Shown here: piece after piece, positions 1,895 to 43,538 of the stretch
Layout of the letters: the number at the start of each line of letters is the position of its first letter
Position numbering within the stretch: the first letter of the stretch is position 1
Assembly (NCBI GenBank): GCA_963813815.1
Contig: CAWFAD010000005.1
Span: forward strand, 32,001 to 96,000
DNA: 64,000 nucleotides
Direction: 5' to 3'
Origin: an uncultured bacterium
GTDB taxonomy: Bacteria > Krumholzibacteriota > Krumholzibacteriia > Krumholzibacteriales > Krumholzibacteriaceae
The notes under the pieces: model-generated
Database searches by the model: none
Seen by the model: only the letters and a program-made list of their open reading frames with translations
What the model was told of the DNA's origin: nothing
Program-made: the position numbers and the translations under genes

Positions 1895-1923
1895 AGTATG
1901 TTAGAACGTTTATCTAATGTCAC
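1895..1923 (-). promoter_or_regulatory. Putative sigma70 promoter of the nitroreductase with a palindromic operator in its spacer
   Basis: Minus strand GTGACA-17nt-CATACT; the spacer is TTAGATAAACGTTCTAA (TTAGA/TCTAA arms). Confidence 0.45.
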
Positions 1924-3332
1924 TTCGAGGCGTCGAAGGCCCTCTTGCGCGCATCGAAGGCGTCCTTGCCGGCCAGCAGGGCCGCGGCCACCGGAAGCCT
2001 GCGGGAGGCGATTCGGCACATCTCGTCCGCGATCTCTCGAATCTCCCACTGCGCCGCCCCGTCGCATCGCAGGCGGGAAAAATGGTAGAGCTCGCGGAGG
2101 TTGCAGGCGAAGAGAACGCGCCGCCGGTGCGCGTTCGTGAGGACGTAGAGCGCGGCCATGCCGAGAGCCCTATGGTGCAGGCGATAGAATTTTTCGGCCG
2201 CCTTCGTCCCCGCGCGAAGCATCCCCGCCGCGCCCGCCGCCCTTACCCTCGACGGCGCGGATACGCCGAGCGAGATATCGTAATCCTGCGGCAAGAGCGC
2301 GGCCATGCGGTGCCGCTTGAGCTGAGCGTAGCACGAAGCCGACACGACGAGATCGAAGATGAGCTCGACGCATTCGAACTCGCGCCAGACGGCGTCATGG
2401 GGCCCGAGACGGCGCATGGTCGTTCGTATGACGCACGCGATCGACCGGGCCGGGAGGCGCCCCGCCGCGCTCTCCGCCTCCGCCATCGACAAGCCGCCGG
2501 CCGAATAGAGAAGACACGCCGCAAGCTTTCTCTCGGCGCCGGGGGTCATCGACGCGAGCGCGACCCGCCCGGCCTCGGCGCGCCGGACGCCGCGGCGGCG
2601 CCTCGCGATCGCGGCGATCTCGCGCCGCGCATCGGGCATTTCCCGGCAATGCTCCGTGGGCGCCGGATAGCGGATGAGCGAGGGAACGATCGGCTTCGAC
2701 ACCCGGAAGAGCCCGCGCGACAGGGTGCGAAGCTCCGCGAGAGGGTGCGCCGCGAGCCGCATGATCACGTACTCGAGCTCTCGCGCGTTCACCGTCATGC
2801 CGAGCTGCGTCGAGGTCGCGAGCGGCATGAGGTAGCGCGCGTCCTCTTTCGCGGCGCCCTCCTCGACTCCGGCGGAGGCGATCCGCCGGTACGTCTCTTC
2901 GTACCGCTCGTGGAGCCCCCGGACGACGGAGCGAAACTCCCGCGCGAGCCCCGCCGCGCGTATCTCGGGGGGCAGAACGAGATCGCGCCCGAGGCGGATG
3001 TATCGCTGCGATTTTTCGGTGAAGGAAGCGAGACGAAAACGCTCGATCTCTTCGACGGCGAGACGCGAGATCCCCGTGACGTCGAAGTTGAGAACGGCGT
3101 GCTCGGCGACGGAGGCGTGGCCGAGCCCGAAGACGATGCGCTCGTTCGAGCGCCGGGCCTTGGCCACGTCGCGCATCGCCTCGGCCCGCAGCGCGCCGAC
3201 GGGGCGCGCGTCGCGGCTGATGCGGGCGTAGGAGGCGGAAAGCACCTCCGGAGTCACGCCCTCCCCCTCGCGTCGCCGCGCGCGGTCGAGGATCGAGGAG
3301 TCGACGTTGTAACCGGCGAGAACCACCTTCAT
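1920..3332 (-). CDS. thyX: FAD-dependent thymidylate synthase, two-domain (tandem ThyX) form
   Basis: GHASVAEHA, RFRLASFTEKSQRY, EDARYLMP, NAREL; the second half has QLKRHR and NLRELYHFSRLR..AQWEIR; start MKVVLAGY. Confidence 0.85.
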   Translation of the reverse strand: MKVVLAGYNVDSSILDRARRREGEGVTPEVLSASYARISRDARPVGALRAEAMRDVAKARRSNERIVFGLGHASVAEHAVLNFDVTGISRLAVEEIERFRLASFTEKSQRYIRLGRDLVLPPEIRAAGLAREFRSVVRGLHERYEETYRRIASAGVEEGAAKEDARYLMPLATSTQLGMTVNARELEYVIMRLAAHPLAELRTLSRGLFRVSKPIVPSLIRYPAPTEHCREMPDARREIAAIARRRRGVRRAEAGRVALASMTPGAERKLAACLLYSAGGLSMAEAESAAGRLPARSIACVIRTTMRRLGPHDAVWREFECVELIFDLVVSASCYAQLKRHRMAALLPQDYDISLGVSAPSRVRAAGAAGMLRAGTKAAEKFYRLHHRALGMAALYVLTNAHRRRVLFACNLRELYHFSRLRCDGAAQWEIREIADEMCRIASRRLPVAAALLAGKDAFDARKRAFDASK

Positions 3333-3345
3333 GGCCGGCCCCCGA

Positions 3346-6300
3346 TCAAAAACTGAAGAGCACGCTCCCGAACCATTTCCATTGCTTCCCCTCGTAGACC
3401 GTCGTGAACTCGTACGGTTTCGTATACACGATCTCGTCGATCCCATAGGCGCCCTCGAGCTCGAGCGCGATGGGGTAGCTGTGAAAGGTGAATCCCTTGA
3501 GCCGCAGCTCGAACCCCGCGTCGCGCTTCAGACGATCCACGTCGAAGGCGTCTCCGACCCACGCGTCCCCCGCCTCGAAAAAGGCGCCCGCGTAGAGCGA
3601 ACCGAGATAGAGGGGCGACACCTGCCGGTCGATGCCGCGCCAGACGGGGAATCGGTAGGTGAGGCGCGCCATGGCGATCCTCTCTCCTCCGAGACTGTAG
3701 TAGGTGTACCCGCGGAGCCCCTCGGCGCTCCCGGCATAAAGATAAAAGAAATCGTCAATCCGGTCGCTGCTTTCGAGGGCGGCGCCCCGCAGGCGCAGCG
3801 ACAGCGCATGACGCCAGAAGGGGAGCGGCAAGTGCTCCTCGTACTGCATCTGAAAACGCCAGAAGTCGTTCGTATCGTAGCTCGGCATGAAGCCGTACTC
3901 GAACCCCGCCTCCAGCTTGTCCCACGCCCGCGTAATCTCGAGGTCGACGCTTCGCCCGCCGCGGGGATTGATGTCCGCGTCCACCTCGCGCCGTATCCCC
4001 CGGTAATGGTAGAGAAGCGACGCCTCGTCCGCTTTAAAGTAGTTCCATCCCCCTTCCCCCTTGAACTCGCGCTGATCGAGAAGCGCCCAGAGCTCGATAT
4101 TGACACCGTACTCCCCGTGGTTGTACTGGAGCACGGCCTCGTTCCGGGCAAAAGGCGTCGTCGGTCTGAACTCCAGCCCGCAGGTGAAATACGCGTCCCA
4201 GAGATCGTAGCGGATGTCGAAATCGACCGCCGATTCGACGCCGGGATCGATCTCGGGGTCGAGCTCGATATTGTCGCGGTAGCTGTAGTATTTCCGGATC
4301 CGGTAGAGCTCGAACCCGAAGGTCGGCTTGAACTGCCGGGTGGCGATCGACAGGTTGAAATCGAAATCGCCGTTCGTCCCGTACGTGAAGCCGCCGAACA
4401 CCGTCTGCCGGTCGAGAAGGTCTCCCGAATCGACGAACGCGCCCGCGCGGAACACCCCGTCGTAGATCATGACGCGCGGATAGACGAAAAGCCTCGTGAA
4501 GGTGATTCCGAAAGGCGTGGAATCGGCCGCGGTGCGACCGTCTGCCCCCTCCGGGGTCGAGGCGATCGCGAGACGCGCGCTCATGAGCGCCTCCGCTTCG
4601 TCCCCGGGAACCGCTCCCGCCGCCCCCGAGCGCCAGTCGGCGAGCCGGAATATCTGGAATCCCGCCTCCCCGTATCCGGAATAGACGAGACCCTTCCCGC
4701 AGGGCGCGGGGCCGAAGGCGCCTCCGACGACGTTCGTCACCATGAGATCGGTCGAATCCGCCGCCCCGCGGAAATAGACGTTGAAAATGCCCGTCCGATC
4801 GCTCGCGTAGAAAAATCCGTCGCCGCCGACGTTCCACCGCGGATCGCGCTCGTCGGCCGCCCCCGCCACGAGCGGCGACTCCGCGCCGGTCGCGGGGTCG
4901 ACGAGAACGATGTCGCGGCTCGAGCCGTCGAAACGCGCCGCGAGGATGCCCCCCTCTCCCCACGAGAGGGACGAGTACTCTCTCCCGTGCGCCGCCGGCG
5001 TGAGGAGCCGGTGTGCGCCCGTCGCCGCGGCGACCACGGCAATGCGGTGCGATCCCGTTTCGGTGACGACACAGGCTATGCTCGCGCCGTCGGGCGACCA
5101 GGCAGGATACGAGGCGCGAAGCCCCCTCGTGAGCCTGCGCTCCTTCCCGGAGGCGACGTCGAGGACGAAGAGATCGCTCCGCAGGTAGCCGCGCTCGTTC
5201 TTCCGGGTGGTTCTCGGAAAACAGATCCGAGCGCCCTCGGGGCTCACATCCGCGCGCGCGCCGGCGTCGGCGACGACCGTTTTCTCCGCGCCGTCGGCTC
5301 CCCGCCGAACGATATCGAGGCTCATGTAGTCGCGGCCCCTGTTCGAAAGATACCAAACGCCCCCGTCCGGATCGACCGCGGGAAACAGGTTGAGAAATCC
5401 CTTTCCCGCGATCCGCTCCCCGGCCGTCTCCCGCGAGCGCACCCGCGCGGCGGCGGGATCGTAAACCGCTCGAAGATCCTCCAGCCAGAGGCGGTAGAGC
5501 TCCTTCGCTCCGACACCGAGCGCCTTCTCGCACGCACCGCCGATACCCCACGTTCGCGTGCCGGAATACGCCGTCGCCAGCGCGCAGAGCTTCTCCGGGC
5601 CGAAACGCTCCGCCATGAAGCGGACGAGCGAATACCCCTGATTATAGACGAGCTCGGACCGGCGGCTGTCCTTGCCGAAGACCCCCATCTCGTCGAGCGT
5701 GAGCAATCCGCCCGAGAGATACGCCGAGCGCAGCAGCATATCCCGGTGCGAGTCCCAAAAATCGTGACGCGCCTTGCCGCATTGATACTGGGCCATGCCC
5801 TCGGCGAGCCAGTTCGGCGCCGTCTCGCCCGGGATCGGAACGGATACCATGAGGTTCGGATACCCCGTGAGAACGTCCGGCCGCTTTTCCTTTTCGAAAT
5901 CGATCGTCTGGAAATAACCCGAGGGCAGCCAGATGGGAAACTTCATCGTCTTTTGCAGCGAAACGAGGTGCGTGAACTCGTGGGCGACGACGTTCTCGAT
6001 CCACGCCGCCGAACCGCGGAACCAGAAGTCGTAGGGAGCCACGCTGATGTCGACCCGGTTGAGATAGTAATAGGTGGTGCCCTGCGCGTCATCCTCGAGA
6101 TCGGAGATGTTGATAAAGATCCGGGGGTCCGGCTCGTATCCGTAGAGCGCGGTGATGGGGCCGTATATCGATTCGGCGATTTCCGCCACGCGCGCCGCAT
6201 GCCATTCGAGGCCGGGATGATACTGAACGCTGAAATGCTCCGTTTGAATCGTCAGCCAGCGAATCTCGGAGTGGTTCCAGGCGAGCGTTCGCGCGGGAGC

Positions 6301-6363
6301 GAGCTGCGCCGCGATCATAACGGCCCCGAGCAATCCGACGCGTACCGAATGCTTCAAACCCAT
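3346..6363 (-). CDS. Secreted/outer-membrane protein: zincin-like domain + TolB/PD40-like beta-propeller + Omp85-like C-terminal barrel
   Basis: Signal peptide; HEFTH..WLAEG; repeats YPAWSPDG, DVSPEG, DPRWN; LRGY near the C-terminus; ends ..VLFSF (terminal Phe). Confidence 0.7.
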   Translation of the reverse strand: MGLKHSVRVGLLGAVMIAAQLAPARTLAWNHSEIRWLTIQTEHFSVQYHPGLEWHAARVAEIAESIYGPITALYGYEPDPRIFINISDLEDDAQGTTYYYLNRVDISVAPYDFWFRGSAAWIENVVAHEFTHLVSLQKTMKFPIWLPSGYFQTIDFEKEKRPDVLTGYPNLMVSVPIPGETAPNWLAEGMAQYQCGKARHDFWDSHRDMLLRSAYLSGGLLTLDEMGVFGKDSRRSELVYNQGYSLVRFMAERFGPEKLCALATAYSGTRTWGIGGACEKALGVGAKELYRLWLEDLRAVYDPAAARVRSRETAGERIAGKGFLNLFPAVDPDGGVWYLSNRGRDYMSLDIVRRGADGAEKTVVADAGARADVSPEGARICFPRTTRKNERGYLRSDLFVLDVASGKERRLTRGLRASYPAWSPDGASIACVVTETGSHRIAVVAAATGAHRLLTPAAHGREYSSLSWGEGGILAARFDGSSRDIVLVDPATGAESPLVAGAADERDPRWNVGGDGFFYASDRTGIFNVYFRGAADSTDLMVTNVVGGAFGPAPCGKGLVYSGYGEAGFQIFRLADWRSGAAGAVPGDEAEALMSARLAIASTPEGADGRTAADSTPFGITFTRLFVYPRVMIYDGVFRAGAFVDSGDLLDRQTVFGGFTYGTNGDFDFNLSIATRQFKPTFGFELYRIRKYYSYRDNIELDPEIDPGVESAVDFDIRYDLWDAYFTCGLEFRPTTPFARNEAVLQYNHGEYGVNIELWALLDQREFKGEGGWNYFKADEASLLYHYRGIRREVDADINPRGGRSVDLEITRAWDKLEAGFEYGFMPSYDTNDFWRFQMQYEEHLPLPFWRHALSLRLRGAALESSDRIDDFFYLYAGSAEGLRGYTYYSLGGERIAMARLTYRFPVWRGIDRQVSPLYLGSLYAGAFFEAGDAWVGDAFDVDRLKRDAGFELRLKGFTFHSYPIALELEGAYGIDEIVYTKPYEFTTVYEGKQWKWFGSVLFSF

Positions 6364-6533
6364 TCTCTCAACCTCGCCCCGAGCTCTTGTGCAGGGGTGA
6401 CGCCCGCCCGCAGGCATCCCGGATGGAAAGCGGCGCACTTCCGACGCGAGAAATATAGCTCATCGCCATCCGCTCTTCCGCCATTATTTTGATCGCCCCC
6501 CCCCGGGGACGCGCGCGCCCCGCCCCCGCTCTC

Positions 6534-7637
6534 TCACCGATCCGTCCGGCGGTAGGCGAACCGCGCCCGGCAGGTGCCCTCGCTCGAAACCATGCACGGC
6601 CCGAAGGGATCCTTCGGCGTGCAGGAGCGGCCGAAGAGGCCGCATTCCTCGGGCTCGATCTCTCCGAGCATGACGCGATGGCATTGGCAGCCCGGACGGA
6701 CGTCGACCGCCTCGCCCTCCGTCGAAAGGCCGAGAGAGCGGACGGCGTCGAGATGCCCGTACTCCTCCCGCAGCGCGAGACCGGACGCCGGAATGACGCC
6801 GATGCCCCGCCACGTCGCGTCCGCAGGGGCGAAACAGCGGTCGATCGTCCCGCGCGCCCTCGGGTTCCCCTCGTCGCGAACCGCCCGCCGGTACTCGTTC
6901 AACACCTCCGGCCTCCCGCCTTCGGCTATCCGCGCGAGGAGCGCGTGCACCCCCCGCAGGATATCCACGGGCTCGAAACCGGCGATGACCGACGGAACGC
7001 CGAACTCCTCATCGAGAAAGCGGTAGCCGCTGCGTCCTATGATGACGCTCACGTGGCCCGGAAGGACGAACCCGTCGATCCTCCCCGGCCCGCGCGCGAG
7101 AAGGAAGCGCAGCGCCGGAGGAATCACGCGAAGGGACGGAATGATGAAGAAATTCCGAGGAGGATCCGCCGCCAGCGCCGCGGCGATCGGCGCCGCGGTC
7201 GTCTCGAAGCCGACGGCCATGAGCACGACGGACGCGCCGGGACGCTCGCGCGCAATCGCGATCGCGTCGGACGGCGAATAAACGACCCGGACGTCGGCTC
7301 CCTCGGCGCGCGCCCGCTCGAGGGAGCCCTCCGTCGCCGGAACGCGCATCATGTCGCCGAAGGTCGCGAGAACGGTGTTCTCGCGGCGCGCCGCAGCCAT
7401 CGCGCGATCGACGTCGCGCGCCGGACACACGCAGACGGGGCAACCCGGTCCCGCGATGAGGCGCACGCCGCCGGGCAGGAGCGAGCGGATGCCGGCGCGC
7501 GCGATGGCGTGCTCGTGCGTGCCGCACACGTGCATGAGGGTGATCGCGCGGTCGACACGGAGCGCCCCTATGGCGCGGGCGATCGCGGCCACCGCCTCCG
7601 GGGAGCTCCATCCGTCGATCGCGCGCGGATCGATCAC
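6534..7637 (-). CDS. hypD: Hydrogenase maturation protein HypD
   Basis: HVCGTHE, GPGCPVC, GFETT, PGHVS, GPCMVSSEGTC. Confidence 0.95.
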   Translation of the reverse strand: MIDPRAIDGWSSPEAVAAIARAIGALRVDRAITLMHVCGTHEHAIARAGIRSLLPGGVRLIAGPGCPVCVCPARDVDRAMAAARRENTVLATFGDMMRVPATEGSLERARAEGADVRVVYSPSDAIAIARERPGASVVLMAVGFETTAAPIAAALAADPPRNFFIIPSLRVIPPALRFLLARGPGRIDGFVLPGHVSVIIGRSGYRFLDEEFGVPSVIAGFEPVDILRGVHALLARIAEGGRPEVLNEYRRAVRDEGNPRARGTIDRCFAPADATWRGIGVIPASGLALREEYGHLDAVRSLGLSTEGEAVDVRPGCQCHRVMLGEIEPEECGLFGRSCTPKDPFGPCMVSSEGTCRARFAYRRTDR

Positions 7638-7870
7638 GCCGGGCCTTCCCCCCTCCCGGCCTCGTAGACCCGCCGGATGAGATCGAGCGTCTCGAGCGCC
7701 TCGCGCTCGTCGATGCGCTCGATGGCGTAGCCGGCGTGGATGAGGACGTAATCGCCGATCGCCACGTTATCGATCAAATCGAGGCGGATGCGTTTCCGCA
7801 CCGAGCTGCTCGCCGCGACGGCGTCGTTGCCGTCGCGCTCGACGATCAGCATGGGAATTCCGAGACACAT
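7634..7870 (-). CDS. hypC: Hydrogenase chaperone HypC
   Basis: Starts MCLGIP; GDYVLIHAGYAI. Confidence 0.95.
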   Translation of the reverse strand: MCLGIPMLIVERDGNDAVAASSSVRKRIRLDLIDNVAIGDYVLIHAGYAIERIDEREALETLDLIRRVYEAGRGEGPA

Positions 7871-8532
7871 CAGCGTCCCCCCGCCGAGGCGGCGAATCGC
7901 TCGACCCAGGCCTCGAATCGATCGAGCCCCTCTCCGGTCACGCACGAAAGCTCGACGATGTCGAGACGCGGCTGTATTTCGAGCGCCTCGCGCCGCGCCT
8001 TCGCGACGTCGAACGAAACGTGGGGCAGCAGGTCGATCTTGTTCAGCACGAGAAGCTGCGCCTCGTGAAACATGAGGGGATACTTCTTCGGTTTGTCGTC
8101 CCCCTCCGAAACGCTCAGCAGCATCACGCGGGCGTCCTCCCCGAGATCGAACTCCGCCGGACAGACGAGGTTCCCCACGTTCTCGATGAGCAAAAGATCG
8201 ATCGCGTCGAGATCGAATCGGTGGAGCGCCGAGTGCACCATCGCCGCGTCGAGATGGCACACGCCGCCCGTCTGTATCTGGTACACCGGAACGCCGAGGG
8301 CCGCGACGCGCTCGGCGTCGGCGGTTCCTTGAATGTCCCCCTCGATGACGCCCACGGCCCGATGCTTCGCGAGCAGGGGGATGGCGCGGACGAGGAGCGA
8401 CGTTTTGCCGGCCCCCGGAGCGCTCATGAGATTGAGCGTCGCGACGCCGTGGGAACGCAGATGCTCTCGGTTCTCCGCCGCGATCACCCGGTTCCGGTCC
8501 CGCAGATCCTCTCCGATCCGTATTTCGTGCAT
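7870..8532 (-). CDS. hypB: Hydrogenase nickel-insertion GTPase HypB
   Basis: SAPGAGKT, IEGD, CHLDA, ENVGNLVCPA, NKIDL; start MHEIRIG. Confidence 0.95.
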   Translation of the reverse strand: MHEIRIGEDLRDRNRVIAAENREHLRSHGVATLNLMSAPGAGKTSLLVRAIPLLAKHRAVGVIEGDIQGTADAERVAALGVPVYQIQTGGVCHLDAAMVHSALHRFDLDAIDLLLIENVGNLVCPAEFDLGEDARVMLLSVSEGDDKPKKYPLMFHEAQLLVLNKIDLLPHVSFDVAKARREALEIQPRLDIVELSCVTGEGLDRFEAWVERFAASAGGR

Positions 8533-8543
8533 CGCCCCTTCCT

Positions 8544-8915
8544 CTATTCCTTCGCGCTCTCGTCCCCCGGCTCGTCGTCCGTCAGGATGTAGTCGACTTC
8601 CATTTCCCGTCCGCCGAGAATATCGATCTCGGTCGAGCCGCACCTCTCGCAGGCGAAAACGAAATTTGCCGGCCGCGCCTCCGCCGCGCACCCCCGGCAC
8701 CGGACGCGGAGCGGAACGCTCTCGCATTCGAGACGACCGCCCTGGGCGACGGTGCCCGGCGCGAGCGCCTCGAAGGCGAAGCTCAGCGCGTCGATATTGA
8801 CCCCGGCCATCTCGCCGATGCGCAGATGCACGACGCGGACGCGCTCGCCGCCCGCCTCGCGAGCCGCGCGCCCGACGATGGCGAGCAGATTTCCCATGAG
8901 AGCGGTTTCATGCAT
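8544..8915 (-). CDS. hypA: Hydrogenase nickel chaperone HypA
   Basis: Starts MHE; two CxxC (CRGC, CERC); GREM. Confidence 0.93.
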   Translation of the reverse strand: MHETALMGNLLAIVGRAAREAGGERVRVVHLRIGEMAGVNIDALSFAFEALAPGTVAQGGRLECESVPLRVRCRGCAAEARPANFVFACERCGSTEIDILGGREMEVDYILTDDEPGDESAKE

Positions 8916-9414
8916 TCGGCCGCTTCCGTTCGCCGAGCCCGCGCGATACGCGCGTCGAGGCACGCCCCAAAACCTCCCCCGCGATCTCCTCGACGAGTCC
9001 CGGCAGCGCCCCGGCGACGGCCTCCGTGCACTCTTCGCCGAGCGTCAGCGCGTCGGCCACCTGCACGGCGTACACCTTCACCTCGGCCGGCATCGCCAGT
9101 CCGAGCCGGCGCCCGAGCGCGAGCGCGGTCACGAGATCGATGTCGTGGAGGGAGGCGAGCCTCGCGGTGATGCGGAGATCGTCGGGCTCGAGGCGGAAGA
9201 CGGTTCCCGGATCCTCTCCCTCGAGCTGGATCGAGTCGATGATAAAAGCGCGGTCGTACCCGCGCAGCAGCTCGACGAGATCGAGCCCCGCGCTCGCCGA
9301 TTCGCGGCAATCGGCGGCGCCGTCGACCCGGCCGGCGAGCGCCCGGACGGCGTACACGCCGACGCCGTCGTCCCGGAGAATGGTGTTGCCGAGACCGAGA
9401 ATGAGCGTTTTCAC
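8908..9414 (-). CDS. Hydrogenase maturation endopeptidase (HycI/HybD family)
   Basis: LGLGNTILRDDGVG, IIDS, SLHD; immediately downstream of the large subunit. Confidence 0.9.
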   Translation of the reverse strand: MKTLILGLGNTILRDDGVGVYAVRALAGRVDGAADCRESASAGLDLVELLRGYDRAFIIDSIQLEGEDPGTVFRLEPDDLRITARLASLHDIDLVTALALGRRLGLAMPAEVKVYAVQVADALTLGEECTEAVAGALPGLVEEIAGEVLGRASTRVSRGLGERKRPNA

Positions 9415-9442: not shown

Positions 9443-10906
9443 TCACGACCGAGAGATCGTGCGGAGCGTCTCGCCGGCGCTGTTTTTCAATTCGACAACG
9501 AGAGGCATCTGACCGGGGAGGCTGTGCGTCGCGCAGCTGAAACAGGGATCGAAGATGCGGAACGCCATCTCGACCGTGTTGAGAAGCCCTTCGGTGACCG
9601 CGCCGCCGGCGCCGATGAACTTCTGGGCGGCCTTCTTGACCGCCATCGAGATCGGCGCGTTGTTGTTCGTCGTGCCGACGATGAGGTTCGCCTTCGTGAC
9701 GATGCCCCGTTCGTCGGTGACGAAGTGGTGCGTGAGCGTCCCGCGCGGCGCTTCGACGATGCCCACTCCCTCGGACGGCGTCGCCGACGGGATGACGCGG
9801 ACGTTCGGATCCAGTATCTCCGGATCGGCGACGAGCTCGGCGAGACGTTCCGCCGCGTAGACAAGCTCGATGAGCCGCGCCCAGTGGTGGGCCATGAGCT
9901 TGTGCACGGGCTTGCCGCCGAAGGTCGCGTACATCCTCTCGTACGCCTCCTGCGCCTTCGGGGTCGCCATGCCGACCGAGGCGTTCAGCCGCGCGAGCGG
10001 CGCCGCCTGATAGATCGAGGTGCCCTTCCCTTCCTTGAAGCCCTGCCAACCGAGCTTCTTGAGGTACGGGAACTTGAGATACGAGTACGGCTCGACGTGC
10101 TCGGCGACGTGCTCGAGGTACTCCGATTCGCGGTACCGGTCGATCTCCGCGCCCTCCGGATCGACGACGCGGACCGTCCCGTCGTAGAGCGTGACGCGGT
10201 TGCGGTCGTCGACGAGCCCCATGTAGTTCGTTACGAGCTCGAAGCCGTCGCCGAGGATGAGATCGAGGTAGGCCTTGTTCTTAAGCACGATGTCGTCGAA
10301 AAGCTTGAGACCAAGCTCGCCGAAGGAAACCAGCCCCGGAACGAAACCCTTGATCGTTTCGAGATCCGCCGGCGCGAGCGCCCGCGAGACCCCGCCCGGA
10401 AGGTTCCAGACCGGATGCGTCGCCCGCCCGCCGACCATCTGCTGGATGAGCTGCGTGATCTCGCGCTGGCGGATCACCTCTCGCCCGAGATCGAGGCCCA
10501 CCTTGCCGATGAGGCCGAGGATGTTGCGCTCGGCCGGGGGAGCGCCCGGCCCGACGACGAAATCGGGCGCCGCGAGCGCGTAGAAATGCGCCGTGTGGCT
10601 GTGCATGAAGTGCGCCATGTAGTACAGCTCGCGCAGCTTCGCGGCCACCGCCGGAATCTTCACCTTGTATACTGCATCTACGGCCTTACCCGAGGCCATG
10701 TGGTGTGCGGCCGGTCAAACCCCGCAGATGCGCGTGACGACCCTCGGTATCTCCTCGACGGGCAGACCTTCGACGAACTTTTCGAATCCCCTCAGCTCGG
10801 GGATCTGGAGGTACGCGTTCTCAACCGCGCCCTCGTCGTTCACGAAGATCATGATCTTCCCGTGCCCTTCGAGGCGAGTGATCGGGTCGATCGCGATGCG
10901 CTTCAT
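9443..10906 (-). CDS. mvhA: Group 3c [NiFe] hydrogenase large subunit MvhA, 487 aa if the in-frame TGA at codon 64 (10715-10717) is read through, probably as Sec
   Basis: MKRIAIDPITRLEGHG..RGFE..TRICGV[TGA]PAAHHMASGKA continues in frame into ORF 9443..10699; EAPRG; C-terminal DPCFSCATH plus a cleavable extension. Confidence 0.9.
10680..10699 (-). promoter_or_regulatory. Candidate bacterial SECIS hairpin inside mvhA
   Basis: mRNA AUGGCCU-CGGGUA-AGGCCGU: 7-bp stem starting 16 nt after the UGA, with G at loop position 2. Confidence 0.6.
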
Positions 10907-11856
10907 ATCCTCTTCCTCCTCGGTATCGATGACGCGAGGCTGAACCGGTGGAGCGTCGTGAGCGGCGCCACCACCGTGTCGAGCGTCGCATTGATCTCGT
11001 TTTCCTCCTTGCCGTCGATGACGGACGCGAGCGCGCTCAGCATCTTGAGCCCCTGATCCGTCACGCCGTCGAGCGGCCCGTAGCAGCCCCGGCAGGGCAC
11101 CCCCGACTTGATGCAGCGCGAGCCGCACCCCGAACGCGTCGCCGGACCGAGGCAGAGGTACCCCTGCTCGAGAAAGCACGTTTCGGGATCGGGGAGCTTC
11201 TCGTGCGTGCGGTAGATCCGCGTGATCTTTTTTTCGCTCTTTATGCGCGCGCATTCGTCGCAGAGGGCGCGTTCGCCGGCGCCGATCACGCTCCCCTTCC
11301 GAGGCAGCATGTCGTCTGCGATGAGCCCGATCGCCGAATAGATCTGGAGGGAGGCGGGCGGACAGCCGGGGATCGTGTAATCGACCTCGACCACCTGCGA
11401 GAGCGTCTTGACGGTATTGTAGAAGCGCGGCAGCTCGAGCTCGAGCCCGTCCTGCACGGTCCGTTCCTCCGGCAACACTCCGCCCGGGTTGTCGGTCGAT
11501 TCCGATTCGATATAAACGCGGCGCAACGTCTCGTCGCGCGTGAACATGTTCGAGAGCCCCGGGATGCCCCCGACGTGGGCGCAGGCGCCGAGAGCGATCA
11601 TCATTTTCCCCTTCCGGCGGAGGAGCTTCGCGATCTCCTCGTTTTCCGAATTGCGGATGGCGCCGCTGAAGAACACCGCGTCGAGAAAACCGTCGGGCAT
11701 GGCGCGCACGTCGTCGTACTTGAAATCCATCGCGATCGGCCAGAAGAGGATGTCGGCCGCCCCCGCGATCTCGAGAATCTTTTCGTGCGTGTCGAGAATC
11801 GCGACGTCGCATCCCCCGCACGCCGCTCCCCAATATATGCCGATCTTGAGCTTCAT
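10903..11856 (-). CDS. mvhG: Hydrogenase small subunit MvhG
   Basis: ACGGCD, GACA..GGIPG, PGCPP, CDEC, CFLEQGYLCLGPATRSGC..C..PCRGC. Confidence 0.92.
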   Translation of the reverse strand: MKLKIGIYWGAACGGCDVAILDTHEKILEIAGAADILFWPIAMDFKYDDVRAMPDGFLDAVFFSGAIRNSENEEIAKLLRRKGKMMIALGACAHVGGIPGLSNMFTRDETLRRVYIESESTDNPGGVLPEERTVQDGLELELPRFYNTVKTLSQVVEVDYTIPGCPPASLQIYSAIGLIADDMLPRKGSVIGAGERALCDECARIKSEKKITRIYRTHEKLPDPETCFLEQGYLCLGPATRSGCGSRCIKSGVPCRGCYGPLDGVTDQGLKMLSALASVIDGKEENEINATLDTVVAPLTTLHRFSLASSIPRRKRI

Positions 11857-11860
11857 CTCG

Positions 11861-12337
11861 TCATACTCCGGTTTCTTGCGCCGCCGCGCCTTCGCCGTGC
11901 AGGACGTCCCGCTTCATGCTTTCGAGCACCGACTCCTTGAGAGCGAGCGGGCCGAGGGCGCGGATCTGCTCGGTGAACTCGTCGACGACGCGTCCGAAGC
12001 GATCCCCCTCCGATGCGGAGATCCACTCGAGACGCACCCTCTCGGGCTCGATGCCGTACTCGGGAAGGACGCGTCTGAGGAGGAGATACCGCCGCAGCGC
12101 CTTGTAATTTCCCTCCAGATAATGGCAATCCCCCGGGTGGCATCCGCCGATGAGCACCCCGTCGGCTCCCTCCGCGAGCGCCGTCAGGATGAACACGGGA
12201 TCCACGCGACCGCTGCACATGACGCGTATCGACCGGACGTTCGGGCTGTACTTCACGCGCGCGGTCCCTGCCAGATCGGCGCCCGTATAGGTGCACCAGT
12301 TGCAGAGGAACCCCACGATTCTCGGTTCAAACGCCAT
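11861..12337 (-). CDS. mvhD: [2Fe-2S] subunit MvhD
   Basis: FLCNWC..GAD, MCSGRVDP, GCHPGDCHY, WISASEG. Confidence 0.95.
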   Translation of the reverse strand: MAFEPRIVGFLCNWCTYTGADLAGTARVKYSPNVRSIRVMCSGRVDPVFILTALAEGADGVLIGGCHPGDCHYLEGNYKALRRYLLLRRVLPEYGIEPERVRLEWISASEGDRFGRVVDEFTEQIRALGPLALKESVLESMKRDVLHGEGAAAQETGV

Positions 12338-12362: not shown

Positions 12363-14381
12363 TCAGGTCACCGACAGCAGACCCTCGATCTCGGCGAGTA
12401 TCTGCTCGTTGCCGAAATGCTTGGCCTTGATCGCGTTGCTCGGGCACGCCGCCACGCACGTGCCGCATCCCTTGCAGAGCGCCTCGTTGATAACGCTGAC
12501 CTTCTTCTCCTCGTCGAACCTGATCGCGAGATACGGGCAGAGATTGTTGCAGATGCGGCAGCCCGAGCAGCGCTCCTCGTCGATCTCGGCCGTCGCAGCC
12601 TCGATCTCGATCTGCCCGCGCATGATCATGGAGAGCACGGCGCTCGAGGCCGCTGACGCCTGCGCGACCGTGTCGGGGATGTCCTTCGGCGACTGGCACG
12701 CGCCGGCGATGAAAACGCCGTCCGTCGCCGTCGACACCGGCCCGAGCTTCGGATGCTTTTCGATGATGAAGCCGTCCTTGCCGACGCTCACGCTGCATTT
12801 CTTCGCGAGCTCGGGAAGCCCCGCGGGCGCCTCGAGACCCGTGCAGAGAATCACCATGTCGACGGGAATGCGCCGCACGACGCCGACGAGCGTATCCTCG
12901 ACGCGCACGACGAGTTTGCCCTTTTCCCCCTCGTGTATCGGCAGGTCGGTGATCTCGCCGACCTTTCCGCGGATGAAACGGACGTCCTCGCCGAGCAGGC
13001 GGTCGTAAAACTCCTCGTACCCTTTGCCGAAGCACCGCAGGTCGATGTAGAAATTGTAGACCTCAGCCTCGGTCTTTTCCTTGATGAGGTGCGCGAACTT
13101 GAGCGCGTACATGCAGCAGACGCGCGAGCAGTACTCGTGCGCGTCCTTGTCGCGGCTTCCGATGCAATGGATGATGCCGATCGCCTTCGGCGTCGAGCCG
13201 TCGGCGAGAACGATCTTTCCGTCCGTGGAACCCGCGGCGCAGTTCATCATCTCGAACTCGATCGCCGTCACGACGTTCGGCAGGACGCCGTAACGGTAGC
13301 GCTTCATGGCCGCCGGATCGTAGGTCCGGAGCCCCGCGGCGATGATGATGTTGCCGACCTCGAACTCGTGAACGCGATCCTCCATGTCGTACCGGATCGC
13401 CTTGCGCTCGCAGATCTTCTCGCAGACGCGGCACTTTCCTTCCTGAAAGTAGCGGCACGAATCGCGGTCGATGACGGGCACCGCCGGAACCGCTTGCATG
13501 AACGGCATGTAGATGGCCGGCGCCGGATTCTGCTTGCCGCTCGATTTCTTGGCCCCGCGCGTGCCGATCGTGAGCTTGCGGTGGATGTTCGTCTCGTCCT
13601 CCGGGATGCGGCAGCCGGGGCAGCGTTCCCAGCACATGCCGCAGCCGTTGCAGAGCTCCCGGTCCACGTAGCGGGCCTTCTCGCGAATCTTCACCTTGAA
13701 GCTGCCGACGAATCCGCTCACTTCTTCGATCTCGGAGTAGGTGAGCAGCTTGATGTTCGCGTGCTGGCCGACCTGAACCATTCTCGGCGTCAGGATGCAC
13801 GCCGCGCAGTCGAGCGTCGGAAAGGTTTTGTCGAACTTCGCCATGTGTCCGCCGATCGAGGGCTCTCGTTCGACGAGCACGACCTCCTTGCCGGCGTCGG
13901 CGAGATCGAGGGCCGCCTGTATCCCCGCGATCCCCCCGCCGATGACGAGCGTGCGCGGGTTGATGGGCACGACGCGCTTCTCGAGCGGCTCCTGCCACGT
14001 GGACCGCCGGGCCGCCGCCGCGAGAAGGGCCTTCGCCTTCTCGGTGGCCGTTTTCCCGTCGATATGAACCCAGGAGCACTGCTCGCGGATGTTCGCCATC
14101 GTGAAGAGGTACGGGTTGACGCCCGATCGCTCGCATACCTTTCGGAACGTGTTCTCGTGCATGAGGGGCGAGCAAGAGGCTACGACGACGCGATCGACGA
14201 GCCCCTCCCGGATGTCCTTTTCGATCATGGCCTGACCGGGATCGGAGCACATGAACTTGTAATCGCGCACGATCTCCACGTTCGGAAGGGTTTTCGCATG
14301 TTCGACCACGGCGTCGACGTCGATTTTGCCGGCGATGTTCGTGCCGCAGTGACAGACGTATACTCCTATCCGTTCAGCCAT
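12363..14381 (-). CDS. hdrA: Heterodisulfide reductase subunit A (flavoprotein)
   Basis: CHCGTNI, NIREQCSWVH, GGGIAG, KTFPTLDC, CSRVCC, C-terminal ferredoxin motifs CSGCRIC and CKGCGTC..CP. Confidence 0.95.
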   Translation of the reverse strand: MAERIGVYVCHCGTNIAGKIDVDAVVEHAKTLPNVEIVRDYKFMCSDPGQAMIEKDIREGLVDRVVVASCSPLMHENTFRKVCERSGVNPYLFTMANIREQCSWVHIDGKTATEKAKALLAAAARRSTWQEPLEKRVVPINPRTLVIGGGIAGIQAALDLADAGKEVVLVEREPSIGGHMAKFDKTFPTLDCAACILTPRMVQVGQHANIKLLTYSEIEEVSGFVGSFKVKIREKARYVDRELCNGCGMCWERCPGCRIPEDETNIHRKLTIGTRGAKKSSGKQNPAPAIYMPFMQAVPAVPVIDRDSCRYFQEGKCRVCEKICERKAIRYDMEDRVHEFEVGNIIIAAGLRTYDPAAMKRYRYGVLPNVVTAIEFEMMNCAAGSTDGKIVLADGSTPKAIGIIHCIGSRDKDAHEYCSRVCCMYALKFAHLIKEKTEAEVYNFYIDLRCFGKGYEEFYDRLLGEDVRFIRGKVGEITDLPIHEGEKGKLVVRVEDTLVGVVRRIPVDMVILCTGLEAPAGLPELAKKCSVSVGKDGFIIEKHPKLGPVSTATDGVFIAGACQSPKDIPDTVAQASAASSAVLSMIMRGQIEIEAATAEIDEERCSGCRICNNLCPYLAIRFDEEKKVSVINEALCKGCGTCVAACPSNAIKAKHFGNEQILAEIEGLLSVT

Positions 14382-14382
14382 G

Positions 14383-15258
14383 TCATGCTCCCTGGAATAT
14401 TTCCTTGATCGGTTTCGTGAGCTTCACCGCGAGACGGTTGAGTCCGAGCTTCTCGGGCGGCAAGCCCAGCGCCACGCCGATGAGCTGGGTGAAGTAGAGA
14501 ATCGGAAGATTGAATTTCGTCTTGAACAGGGCGTTCACCTTTCCCTGGTACACGTCGAGATTCATCTGACAGAGCGGGCACGTCGTGACGAGGCAGTGCG
14601 CCCCCCTGCGCTCGGCGTCGAGGAGCAGGTTCCTGCAGAGCCGCATGGCGAGCTCCTCCTGCGTCCCCATGAGGGATGCGCCGCAGCAGGCGGTTTTCAT
14701 CCGGTAATCGACGTTTTCCGCCCCGAGCTTCTCGATGAGCTTGTTCATCTTGACCGGATCGTCCGGATCGTCGAAATCAGTCTCGGGACGGACGATCTGG
14801 CATCCGTAGTACGGCGCCACCTTGAGCCCCGTGAGCTTCTTCACGACGAGCGAGCCGATCGTGTCGCAACCGACGTCGCTGCACACCACGTCGAGCAGGT
14901 GGCGGACCCGCACGTTGCCGCTGTAGCTGAGGCCTCCCGCCTCGAGCGCCTGGCCGATCTTCTTGCGCAGATCCGGATATTCGGCGAAATACCGGTTCGT
15001 CTTGTTGAGAACGGTGTAGCAGGCGCTGCACGGCGTCACCACGTCGCGGTGATGCTGCTCGGCGAGCGCGAGGTTGCGCGCCGAGATCGCGAAGCTCATG
15101 AGCTCCTTCACCGACATGTAGGCGGTCGCGCCGCAGCAGTTCCAATCCTCGAGCTCCTCGAGCTCGAGCCCGAGCGCCGGCGCGATCGCGTCGATCGAGT
15201 CCCGATAGATGTTGGCGGTCGCGCGGACGGAGCAGCCGGGATAGTACGTGTATTTCAT
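14383..15258 (-). CDS. hdrB: Heterodisulfide reductase subunit B
   Basis: YYPGC, CCG (x2), PCSAC, YYGCQ, CPLCQMNLD (CCG domains). Confidence 0.95.
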   Translation of the reverse strand: MKYTYYPGCSVRATANIYRDSIDAIAPALGLELEELEDWNCCGATAYMSVKELMSFAISARNLALAEQHHRDVVTPCSACYTVLNKTNRYFAEYPDLRKKIGQALEAGGLSYSGNVRVRHLLDVVCSDVGCDTIGSLVVKKLTGLKVAPYYGCQIVRPETDFDDPDDPVKMNKLIEKLGAENVDYRMKTACCGASLMGTQEELAMRLCRNLLLDAERRGAHCLVTTCPLCQMNLDVYQGKVNALFKTKFNLPILYFTQLIGVALGLPPEKLGLNRLAVKLTKPIKEIFQGA

Positions 15259-15834
15259 CTAGATCTCCCCGAGCTCGTCGACCCTCTTGAGTATCTTTCG
15301 CAACTGCTGAATGTTCTTGATGCGATGCGGCAGGAGCGGGAGACGCCCGTTCGAGAAGAGTCGCCAGCCCTGCGGAACGAACTTGAACGCATGATGCGGT
15401 TCGGCTTCGAGAATATACCGCGCCATGAGCTCCGTCTCGTGGTTGCGGCCGTACTTGTTGACCATGCGCGCGAAGTTACGCGAAAGCACGACCGCTTTCT
15501 TCCCCTTGGTCTTGCCTTCGGCGACGGCCAGGCGCTTGAGGGCGTACATGACGTCGGTGATCTTTATGTTCTTCGGACACCGCACCGAGCAGGTGTAGCA
15601 GGACGAGCAGTACCATATCGTGTTCGAACGGAGGACCTCGTCGCGGAAGCCCGCCCGGATGAGGGAAAAGATCTTGCGCGGGCCGTGGTCCATGACGTAG
15701 CTCAGCGGGCAGGAGCTGCTGCACGTTCCGCACTGGATGCATTTCTTGATTTCGTGCCCTCCGGGGAGGGAGTAGATCTCGGTCAGAAAATCATGATCGA
15801 GCTTGTATTCGGCCACGATGTCCCTGTCGAGCAT
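15259..15834 (-). CDS. hdrC: Heterodisulfide reductase subunit C
   Basis: CIQCGTCSSSCP and CSSCYTCSVRCP. Confidence 0.93.
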   Translation of the reverse strand: MLDRDIVAEYKLDHDFLTEIYSLPGGHEIKKCIQCGTCSSSCPLSYVMDHGPRKIFSLIRAGFRDEVLRSNTIWYCSSCYTCSVRCPKNIKITDVMYALKRLAVAEGKTKGKKAVVLSRNFARMVNKYGRNHETELMARYILEAEPHHAFKFVPQGWRLFSNGRLPLLPHRIKNIQQLRKILKRVDELGEI

Positions 15835-43374: not shown

Positions 43375-43538
43375 AGCGTTCCATAGCTCTCTGGGATGGC
43401 GGCCCGACCATCCGTGTGTCCTGCGGTGGCCCGAGACTGACCACTACACCCTTGCGACGCGGGCAGCAACGCTCCCGCCGCACTCAACATAGCAGGAATC
43501 GGCTCAACATCCAACAGTCTTTTCGAATATCAAAGAAT

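Follow-up and report, generated by a model that had tools for sequence, protein, structure and literature searches.

A putative selenocysteine codon at the nickel-iron bridging position of an Mvh-type hydrogenase in an uncultured Krumholzibacteriota bacterium

The mvhA gene and its operon

The DNA considered here is a 64,000-nucleotide (nt) stretch, referred to below as the window, of contig CAWFAD010000005.1 (assembly GCA_963813815.1, positions 32,001 to 96,000 of the forward strand), which derives from an uncultured bacterium of the family Krumholzibacteriaceae in the phylum Krumholzibacteriota. Its minus strand carries an operon with the gene order hdrC-hdrB-hdrA-mvhD-mvhG-mvhA, in which mvhA, encoding the large subunit of a nickel-iron hydrogenase, is the last structural gene and is followed by genes for a maturation protease, a HypB-like GTPase and HypC (Table 1). 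Codon 64 of mvhA is an in-frame UGA, and the evidence assembled below strongly suggests that it is read as selenocysteine (Sec, U) at a position where it would bridge the two metals of the active site.

Table 1. Features of the hydrogenase locus, with positions counted from the first letter of the window
Feature	Position	Strand	Details
mvhA, [NiFe(Se)] hydrogenase large subunit	9443..10906	-	487 codons including U64; ATG at 10906, stop TGA at 9443-9445
In-frame UGA, codon 64	10715..10717	-	second Cys position of RxCGxC; putative Sec
Spacer between UGA and hairpin	10700..10714	-	15 nt, encodes P-A-A-H-H; residues kept, synonymous sites vary
Hairpin AUGGCCU-CGGGUA-AGGCCGU, resembling a selenocysteine insertion sequence (SECIS)	10680..10699	-	6-bp core, 10693-10698 with 10681-10686; 6-nt loop, 10687-10692
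mvhG, hydrogenase small subunit	10903..11856	-	PF01058, 76.6 bits; stop overlaps mvhA start (ATGA)
mvhD (FlpD/MvhD family)	11861..12337	-	PF02662, 185.4 bits at window 11951-12319 (G000:C5:43951-44319); no in-frame stop
hdrA-like flavoprotein with 4Fe-4S domains	12363..14381	-	672 aa; Fer4, Pyr_redox_2 and FAD-binding families; no in-frame stop
hdrB-like, two CCG domains	14383..15258	-	PF02754, 101.2 bits, 2 stretches
hdrC-like, 4Fe-4S dicluster	15259..15834	-	PF13183, 47.9 bits
Hydrogenase maturation endopeptidase, HycI family	8908..9414	-	PF01750, 44.9 bits
hypB-like GTPase	7870..8727	-	PF02492, 80.6 bits
hypC	about 7634..7870	-	PF01455, 83.4 bits, residues 131-194 of the 7634-8260 open reading frame

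Translated in a single frame, mvhA reads MKRIAIDPITRLEGHGK...VVTRICGV-TGA-PAAHHMASGKAVDAVYK...DPCFSCATH, followed by a C-terminal extension of 26 residues. Both metal-binding motifs of the family are present, namely RICGV-U-PAAH, in which U replaces the second Cys of RxCGxCxxxH, and DPCFSCATH, which corresponds to DPCxxCxxH and contains plain Cys residues (C455 and C458) with no stop codon. The gene therefore has the N-terminal CXXU arrangement, with a putative Sec codon in place of the second N-terminal Cys, and lacks the canonical C-terminal UxxC arrangement, in which Sec occupies the first Cys of DPCxxC. An earlier note on this DNA, made from the letters of the sequence, had pointed to a single-frame TGA exactly at the second Cys of RxCGxC, a plain-Cys C-terminal motif with a cleavable extension, and an intact cognate protease accompanied by hyp genes, and all of these observations are borne out.

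The MvhA protein matches PF00374, the family of Ni-dependent hydrogenase large subunits, with 124.8 bits (cut-off 25.8); three such matches were found in the genome, and mvhA is the only one with an internal stop. The top NCBIfam match is VhuA (NF041785), and because its score of 395.5 bits lies below the equivalog cut-off of 800, the protein is Mvh-like and no equivalog of archaeal VhuA. The closest solved structures are 7t2r_D, the large subunit of NiFe-HydABCSL (E=9.6e-113), and 5odc_F, an MvhA (E=3.7e-109), and in both chains the residue facing codon 64 is the second Cys of RICGIC; by offset codon 64 is also equivalent to Cys79 of E. coli Hyd-1 (3uqy_L, where query residues 2-117 correspond to chain residues 17-132). 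The enzyme is described here as Group 3c-like, a label drawn from the best solved and NCBIfam relatives and from the operon.

Occurrence of the UGA codon in related genes

When the read-through protein was searched against 41 related genomes, codon 64 could be read in the 30 loci returned: it was TGA in 19 and TGC or TGT in 9, and the motif search came back empty for 2 loci, one of which lacks the N-terminus. TGA and Cys codons thus alternate at exactly this position, the outcome that the earlier note had named as a check on its proposal. Across 208 genomes of the phylum, 21 contain an ortholog (73-100% identity) bearing one TGA, whose position was verified in 19 of them, and 36 contain an ortholog (51-77% identity) that spans codon 64 without a stop; a further 2 have fragments ending short of the codon and 11 have only more distant paralogs. 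Beyond the phylum, the same TGA is found in an Acidobacteriota genome (63% identity), and a Myxococcales genome has TGT at codon 64.

A metagenome scan was performed with the pattern C-G-x-TGA-P-x-A-H-H, which ends before the hairpin and left out the hairpin codons, and at least 120 stretches matched. Among the 120 matches listed, 84 are MvhA genes with the TGA and 36 are chance matches; by the residues surrounding position 73, the 84 genes listed divide into 44 of the subtype AS-C-KA, 38 of the subtype AS-G-KA and 2 others. In the former subtype, Cys replaces Gly at residue 73 (MAS-C-KA, with UGU or UGC as the loop codon), nine residues past the putative Sec.

The codon is also covered by contigs of four public runs, including two RNA libraries, and none of the 40 differences listed in that comparison falls on the codon or the hairpin. 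The recurrence of the TGA in independent assemblies and in these contigs answers the earlier note's concern about an assembly error. Downstream of the TGA, 423 codons remain open and are conserved at 73-92% identity.

Between the UGA and the next ATG, codons +1 to +5 specify P, A/G, A, H and H. The residues are kept while the third positions vary (entropies of 1.51, 1.49, 1.69, 0.99 and 0.94 bits), which shows that the PAAHH stretch is translated in the mvhA frame and the UGA read through. Public gene calls give another picture of the same region. A protein search with the 418-residue part after the TGA returned 8000 scored clusters, and among the best 120 of these, 97 lack the N-terminal RxCGxC motif, 95 of which begin with MASG, the first ATG after the TGA; the other 23 are full-length and have Cys. 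The N-terminal truncation of these genes in public calls is a systematic annotation error, and since public annotation truncates them systematically, surveys of hydrogenase diversity and of selenoproteomes under-count these enzymes. For several of the truncated clusters, the source gives the name 'F420-non-reducing hydrogenase large subunit'.

The distribution of the two states was further examined on an unrooted, quickly computed FastTree tree with 113 Sec-type and 33 Cys-type rows (146 in total), for which truncation served to assign the state of database proteins. Rows of like state group together on this tree: it needs 6 state changes, at least 3 of which are forced by well-supported branches, and none of 500 shuffles of the states was as low as 6 (mean 30.2). 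The mvhA of the window falls within a clade of 96 Sec-type rows and 4 scattered Cys-type rows, with 23 Cys-type rows as the sister clade, and more distant Sec-type groups (64-66% identity, and the Acidobacteriota gene) branch outside that clade. Because the tree is unrooted and quick, gains and losses of Sec are not separable on it.

Three genomes of the phylum (G023, G047 and G066) contain Group 3-like paralogs that are 41-42% identical to MvhA (L182, L183 and L184, respectively) and have a C-terminal DP-TGA-LSCATH together with a Cys-only N-terminal RICGIC, so that both Sec placements occur in the phylum; in G023, the C-terminal-Sec paralog stands beside a Cys-type MvhA ortholog. A further large-subunit gene (L185, G061:C9; 38% identity), with three TGAs within 18 codons, was rejected as a Sec candidate, since the intervening sequence is unlike a hydrogenase and resembles a local frame disruption.

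The hairpin downstream of codon 64

Downstream of the UGA lies a hairpin with a stem of 6-7 bp that starts 15-16 nt past the codon, a loop beginning 23 nt past it and a local folding energy of -10.0 kcal/mol. The earlier note had placed this stem-loop sixteen nt downstream; the hairpin itself is as described, and the distance is more exactly a spacer of 15 nt, with the stem beginning at the 16th. The bacterial SECIS consensus is described as a stem-loop with G at position 1 or 2 of the apical loop (PMC13582414), and here G stands at position 2 of the loop CGGGUA. At the gathering threshold, Rfam detected no SECIS-type or other family at mvhA; elsewhere in the window it returned two tRNAs and an nhaA-I riboswitch.

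A codon-by-codon comparison was made between 94 distinct TGA-type and 10 distinct Cys-type sequences. At the hairpin codons Ala+7, Ser+8, Lys+10 and Ala+11, third-position entropy in the TGA-type set is 0.17, 0.15, 0.00 and 0.23 bits, respectively, as against 1.76, 1.69, 1.00 and 1.49 bits in the Cys-type set, and the flanking four-fold sites of the TGA-type set reach 1.5-1.9 bits. As the metagenome pattern did not include the hairpin codons, this contrast was not imposed by the search. These synonymous sites show that selection at the RNA level acts on the hairpin in TGA-type genes. Each of the six inner pairs is present in 92-94 of the 94 TGA-type sequences, and 90.4% of the cells in the hairpin alignment pair, compared with 0.6-46.5% when the partners are slid. 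RNAalifold, applied to the alignment, predicted exactly the 6-bp hairpin and nothing else, giving no support for a conserved lower stem. Within the alignment, pair 35-52 alternates between U-G and U-A (47:45), and 4 double changes occur in the outermost hairpin pair, which fails to form in 58 of the 94 sequences. The loop reads CGGGUA, CGUGUA or CGUGCA, and its second position is G in every case.

The earlier note had also remarked on A/T-ending codons around the hairpin as a possible sign of RNA constraint. This holds for GGT, which lies in the hairpin loop and ends in T in 82 of the 94 sequences, and fails beyond the genus for the run GTA-GAT-GCA-GTA on the 3' side of the hairpin, which is conserved within the genus and has third-position entropies of 1.45, 0.99, 1.92 and 1.93 bits in the wider TGA-type set.

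Residues co-varying with the Sec/Cys state were sought in the protein alignment, and only S72 and P418 emerged. The UCG codon of Ser72 spans the junction between stem and loop. Ser occupies this position in 100% of the 113 Sec-type rows versus 18% of the 33 Cys-type rows, and the co-variation of S72 is explained by the RNA; that of P418 is probably phylogenetic. One Cys-type ortholog with TGC at codon 64 (L037, from genome G020) retains the complete TGA-type hairpin sequence, which suggests a recent change from Sec to Cys whose SECIS has not yet decayed. Two TGA-type metagenome loci differ from the common form: L070 has a different 5-bp stem at the same place, shifted by one register and with the loop CGUGAA, and the sequence of L162 (MASTKAL...) departs from the common hairpin.

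Selenocysteine machinery, competing readings and known hydrogenases

The earlier note had advised searching the genome for selA, selB, selC and selD, and all four are present. selA scores 506 bits, selB 353 bits (with one SelB-class match above the cut-off) and selD 367 bits; the tRNA-Sec (71.3 bits) has a UCA anticodon, an 8-bp acceptor stem, a 5-bp T stem, discriminator G and a long variable arm. The selD gene (L018, G000:C10:174414-175340) has an in-frame UGA of its own, in MASCAG-TGA-AAKLSP, with a predicted stem directly after it. No Sec-type formate dehydrogenase was found in the genome with TIGR01553. selA is present in 200 of the 208 phylum genomes, including all 125 of high quality, so that Krumholzibacteriota appear to use Sec throughout the phylum; a literature search pairing this phylum with selenocysteine returned nothing.

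Under the reading favoured here, to which a probability of about 0.85 is assigned, codon 64 specifies SelB- and SECIS-dependent Sec as the ligand that bridges Ni and Fe in a Group 3c Mvh hydrogenase encoded by an hdrCBA-mvhDGA operon. SelB carrying Sec-tRNA(Sec) would bind the 6-bp/6-nt hairpin 15-16 nt after the UGA and insert Sec during mvhA translation, yielding a full-length large subunit of 487 residues with the N-terminal motif RICGVU. After Hyp-dependent metal insertion, the adjacent protease would cleave off the C-terminal extension of 26 residues. In the mature enzyme, Se64 would take the place of the Ni-Fe bridging Cys thiolate, in line with the prediction that Sec in an N-terminal CXXU motif bridges Ni and Fe (PMC13582414), and the remaining ligands would be the Cys residues C61, C455 and C458. 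Within a complex of the MvhAGD-HdrABC type, encoded by a single operon, the enzyme may act as the module that oxidises H2, with electrons from H2 presumably entering flavin-based electron bifurcation. The proposal of the earlier note, Sec at the bridging second Cys of the L1 motif, accordingly finds support in the Sec machinery, the TGA/Cys alternation, the conservation of the hairpin in TGA-type genes only and the independent assemblies.

Several points weigh against this reading. The case for selenium incorporation is made at the level of sequence, not of protein. Folding a single sequence, a check that the earlier note had proposed, gives no evidence either way: a 76-nt fold is no better than shuffles (z = 0.07) and is by itself unremarkable in a G+C-rich gene, so that the significance of the hairpin comes from comparison with other sequences, in which its synonymous sites are conserved only in TGA-type genes. 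Compensatory changes were looked for in the 94 sequences and none was found in the six-pair core, whose stem is nearly invariant, and the argument for the structure is therefore one of conservation and not of covariation. The presence of selA, found in nearly all genomes of the phylum, fails to separate TGA-type from Cys-type genomes. The four-run comparison contains 35 differences beyond the 40 listed and concerns contigs, not raw reads; contigs of RNA libraries show neither transcription nor rare variants. The advantage of selenium at the bridging site is not established, and an engineered enzyme with Sec at the equivalent position, the C79U variant of E. coli Hyd-1, retained 13% of the native activity in H2 oxidation and became inactive at 10% O2 (PMC8020662).

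Among the competing explanations, the one closest in mechanism invokes the same hairpin and SelB together with a tRNA(ReC)-like tRNA-Cys that recodes the UGA as Cys, in which case the enzyme would be an ordinary all-Cys [NiFe] hydrogenase. Such tRNAs, whose anticodon is UCA or GCA, are able to insert Cys at a SECIS-dependent UGA, which is an inherent limit of in-silico assignment (PMC13582414). Whole-genome analysis with ARAGORN detected 48 tRNAs, one of which has a UCA anticodon and is the tRNA-Sec, plus two odd candidates: one of 85 nt on contig 13, labelled 'tRNA-Cys(gca)', and one on contig 5 that could not be assigned. The stems of both odd candidates are mismatched, neither has an Rfam match at E <= 1, and the former lies inside long open frames, so that they are read as false positives; the sole UCA tRNA bears discriminator G and scores well as tRNA-Sec, SelB is represented by a single match, and selA and a Sec-containing selD are retained. 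A second, non-canonical tRNA (UCA or GCA) suited to Cys recoding was thus not found in this genome, which is 90.8% complete, although such a tRNA could sit in the missing part. Cys recoding, which the earlier note had offered as an alternative, is consequently considered very unlikely. Readthrough of the UGA by a near-cognate standard tRNA (e.g., for Trp or Arg) without the Sec system, with the hairpin merely stimulating it, would agree with the general knowledge that downstream structures can have such an effect, but Trp or Arg could not ligate Ni or Fe at a position that is otherwise always Cys, and the organism retains a complete Sec system; this explanation is extremely improbable.

It might also be supposed that the TGA is a true stop, leaving a 63-residue N-terminal peptide and a 418-residue protein that starts at Met70, much as VhuA and VhuU are separate in Methanococcus. 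Large subunits split in two do occur, MvhA residues 437-463 are matched by the NCBIfam VhuU model, and the public calls described above are 418-residue proteins starting with MASG. Such a split would nevertheless cost the enzyme one of its four metal ligands and leave PAAHH untranslated though it is conserved as protein; moreover, the frozen synonymous sites overlie the hairpin, and the Cys-type relatives are continuous proteins of 486 residues. A split gene is therefore judged highly improbable. A sequencing or assembly error, or a recent nonsense mutation that has made mvhA a pseudogene, could be entertained if only a bare stop codon in one assembly were considered, and is left with virtually no probability by the presence of the TGA in 19 separately assembled genomes, the Acidobacteriota genome, the 84 listed metagenome contigs and the four public runs, as well as by the open and conserved downstream frame and the intact operon and maturation genes. 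These findings rule out both an assembly error and a nonsense mutation private to this genome.

With Sec at codon 64 as the preferred reading, the enzyme can be compared with known selenium-containing hydrogenases. The canonical [NiFeSe] enzymes (Hys of Desulfovibrio and Desulfomicrobium, 1cc1 and 2wpn; Vhu and Fru of Methanococcus) belong to the same PF00374 family, with matches at E about 1e-35, and follow the same UGA/Sec principle. In these enzymes, however, Sec stands at the first Cys position of the C-terminal motif, DPUxxC, and is a terminal Ni ligand, whereas the present protein has DPCFSC there and its putative Sec in the N-terminal motif. The gene set hdrC, hdrB, hdrA, mvhD, mvhG and mvhA is that of the methanogen MvhAGD-HdrABC complex (5odc); MvhA of that complex and the large subunit of 7t2r have Cys at the position of U64, and the host here is a bacterium. 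The engineered Hyd-1 C79U variant shares the ligand position, but it is artificial, programmed by UAG and derived from an O2-tolerant Group 1 enzyme (PMC8020662); it also showed a lower Michaelis constant (KM) for H2, and natural examples of bridging Sec are termed 'purported' in the same paper.

The closest precedents are other N-terminal CXXU sequences. Baltazar et al. reported this motif in 2011 in three sequences, two of Group 1 and one of Group 3, as cited in PMC13582414. The present enzyme shares with them Sec at the second N-terminal Cys, the predicted Ni-Fe bridge and, in one case, membership in Group 3. The bridging-Sec type, noted in silico since then according to the same source, is therefore not new; of the earlier note's suggestion of a distinct type of Se-hydrogenase, the distinctness stands and the novelty does not. 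More recently, 47 Group 4 sequences with N-terminal Sec (CXXU, UXXC or UXXU), 27 of which are CXXU, have been described (PMC13582414, Front Microbiol 2026). They resemble the present gene in the CXXU motif, in the kind of in-silico evidence (Sec genes, a SECIS-like hairpin whose loop has G at position 1 or 2, and Cys-type relatives) and in their truncated mis-annotation. The Group 4 enzymes are membrane-bound and energy-converting, and that survey excluded Groups 1-3, whereas the enzyme considered here is a soluble, Mvh-type, Group 3c-like protein of an hdrCBA-mvhDGA operon.

Elsewhere in the literature, the consulted sections of a 2026 review of prokaryotic selenoproteomes give MvhA/VhuA/VhuU with the C-terminal UxxC motif only (PMC13188914), an MvhA2 that contains Sec appears in the consulted part of the D. 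autotrophicum genome paper, where the position of its Sec is not stated (PMC2702500), and the passages retrieved from the S. fumaroxidans paper contain no mention of a Sec-containing MvhA. Nothing relevant was among the matches listed by a search combining selenocysteine, 'group 3c' and NiFeSe. Within the literature searched, a natural enzyme of the bridging-Sec type seems not to have been characterised.

What is added by the present analysis is scale: a Sec placement regarded as rare turns out to be frequent among uncultured bacteria of soil and sediment. In comparison with the 2011 sequences, of which one belongs to Group 3, the codon is found here throughout a genus and in more of its phylum, in an Acidobacteriota genome and in at least 84 metagenome contigs: the variant is the rule in the genus and recurs in other phyla and subtypes, with a nearly invariant putative SECIS core and a routinely truncated annotation. 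It may be speculated, with considerable doubt, that bridging selenium is the prevailing form in a large branch of Mvh-type hydrogenases from uncultured bacteria of soil, sediment and freshwater (Krumholzibacteriota, Acidobacteriota and others) and is retained because selenium tunes the enzyme. If so, selenium at the Ni-Fe bridge might, for example, raise the affinity for H2 and thereby serve Hdr-Mvh bifurcation at very low H2, and these proteins would represent a second class of [NiFeSe] active site, one that differs in function and is unsampled by structural and electrochemical work. To our knowledge, what is known of selenium in hydrogenases comes entirely from enzymes in which Sec is a terminal ligand of Ni and from one engineered, poorly active bridging variant. 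A natural and strongly conserved bridging-Sec enzyme in many uncultured lineages would offer an object for studying the role of selenium in H2 affinity, catalytic bias, O2 response and maturation.

Two further observations concern the surroundings of the operon in the window. Just past the hyp genes, three successive long open reading frames on the plus strand (479, 1053 and 392 aa; window 1917-7667) have no Pfam match at E <= 1e-5. The nhaA-I riboswitch-class RNA lies at window 43394-43451 on the minus strand, scores 49.5 bits against a gathering score of 37 and adjoins a tRNA-Glu.

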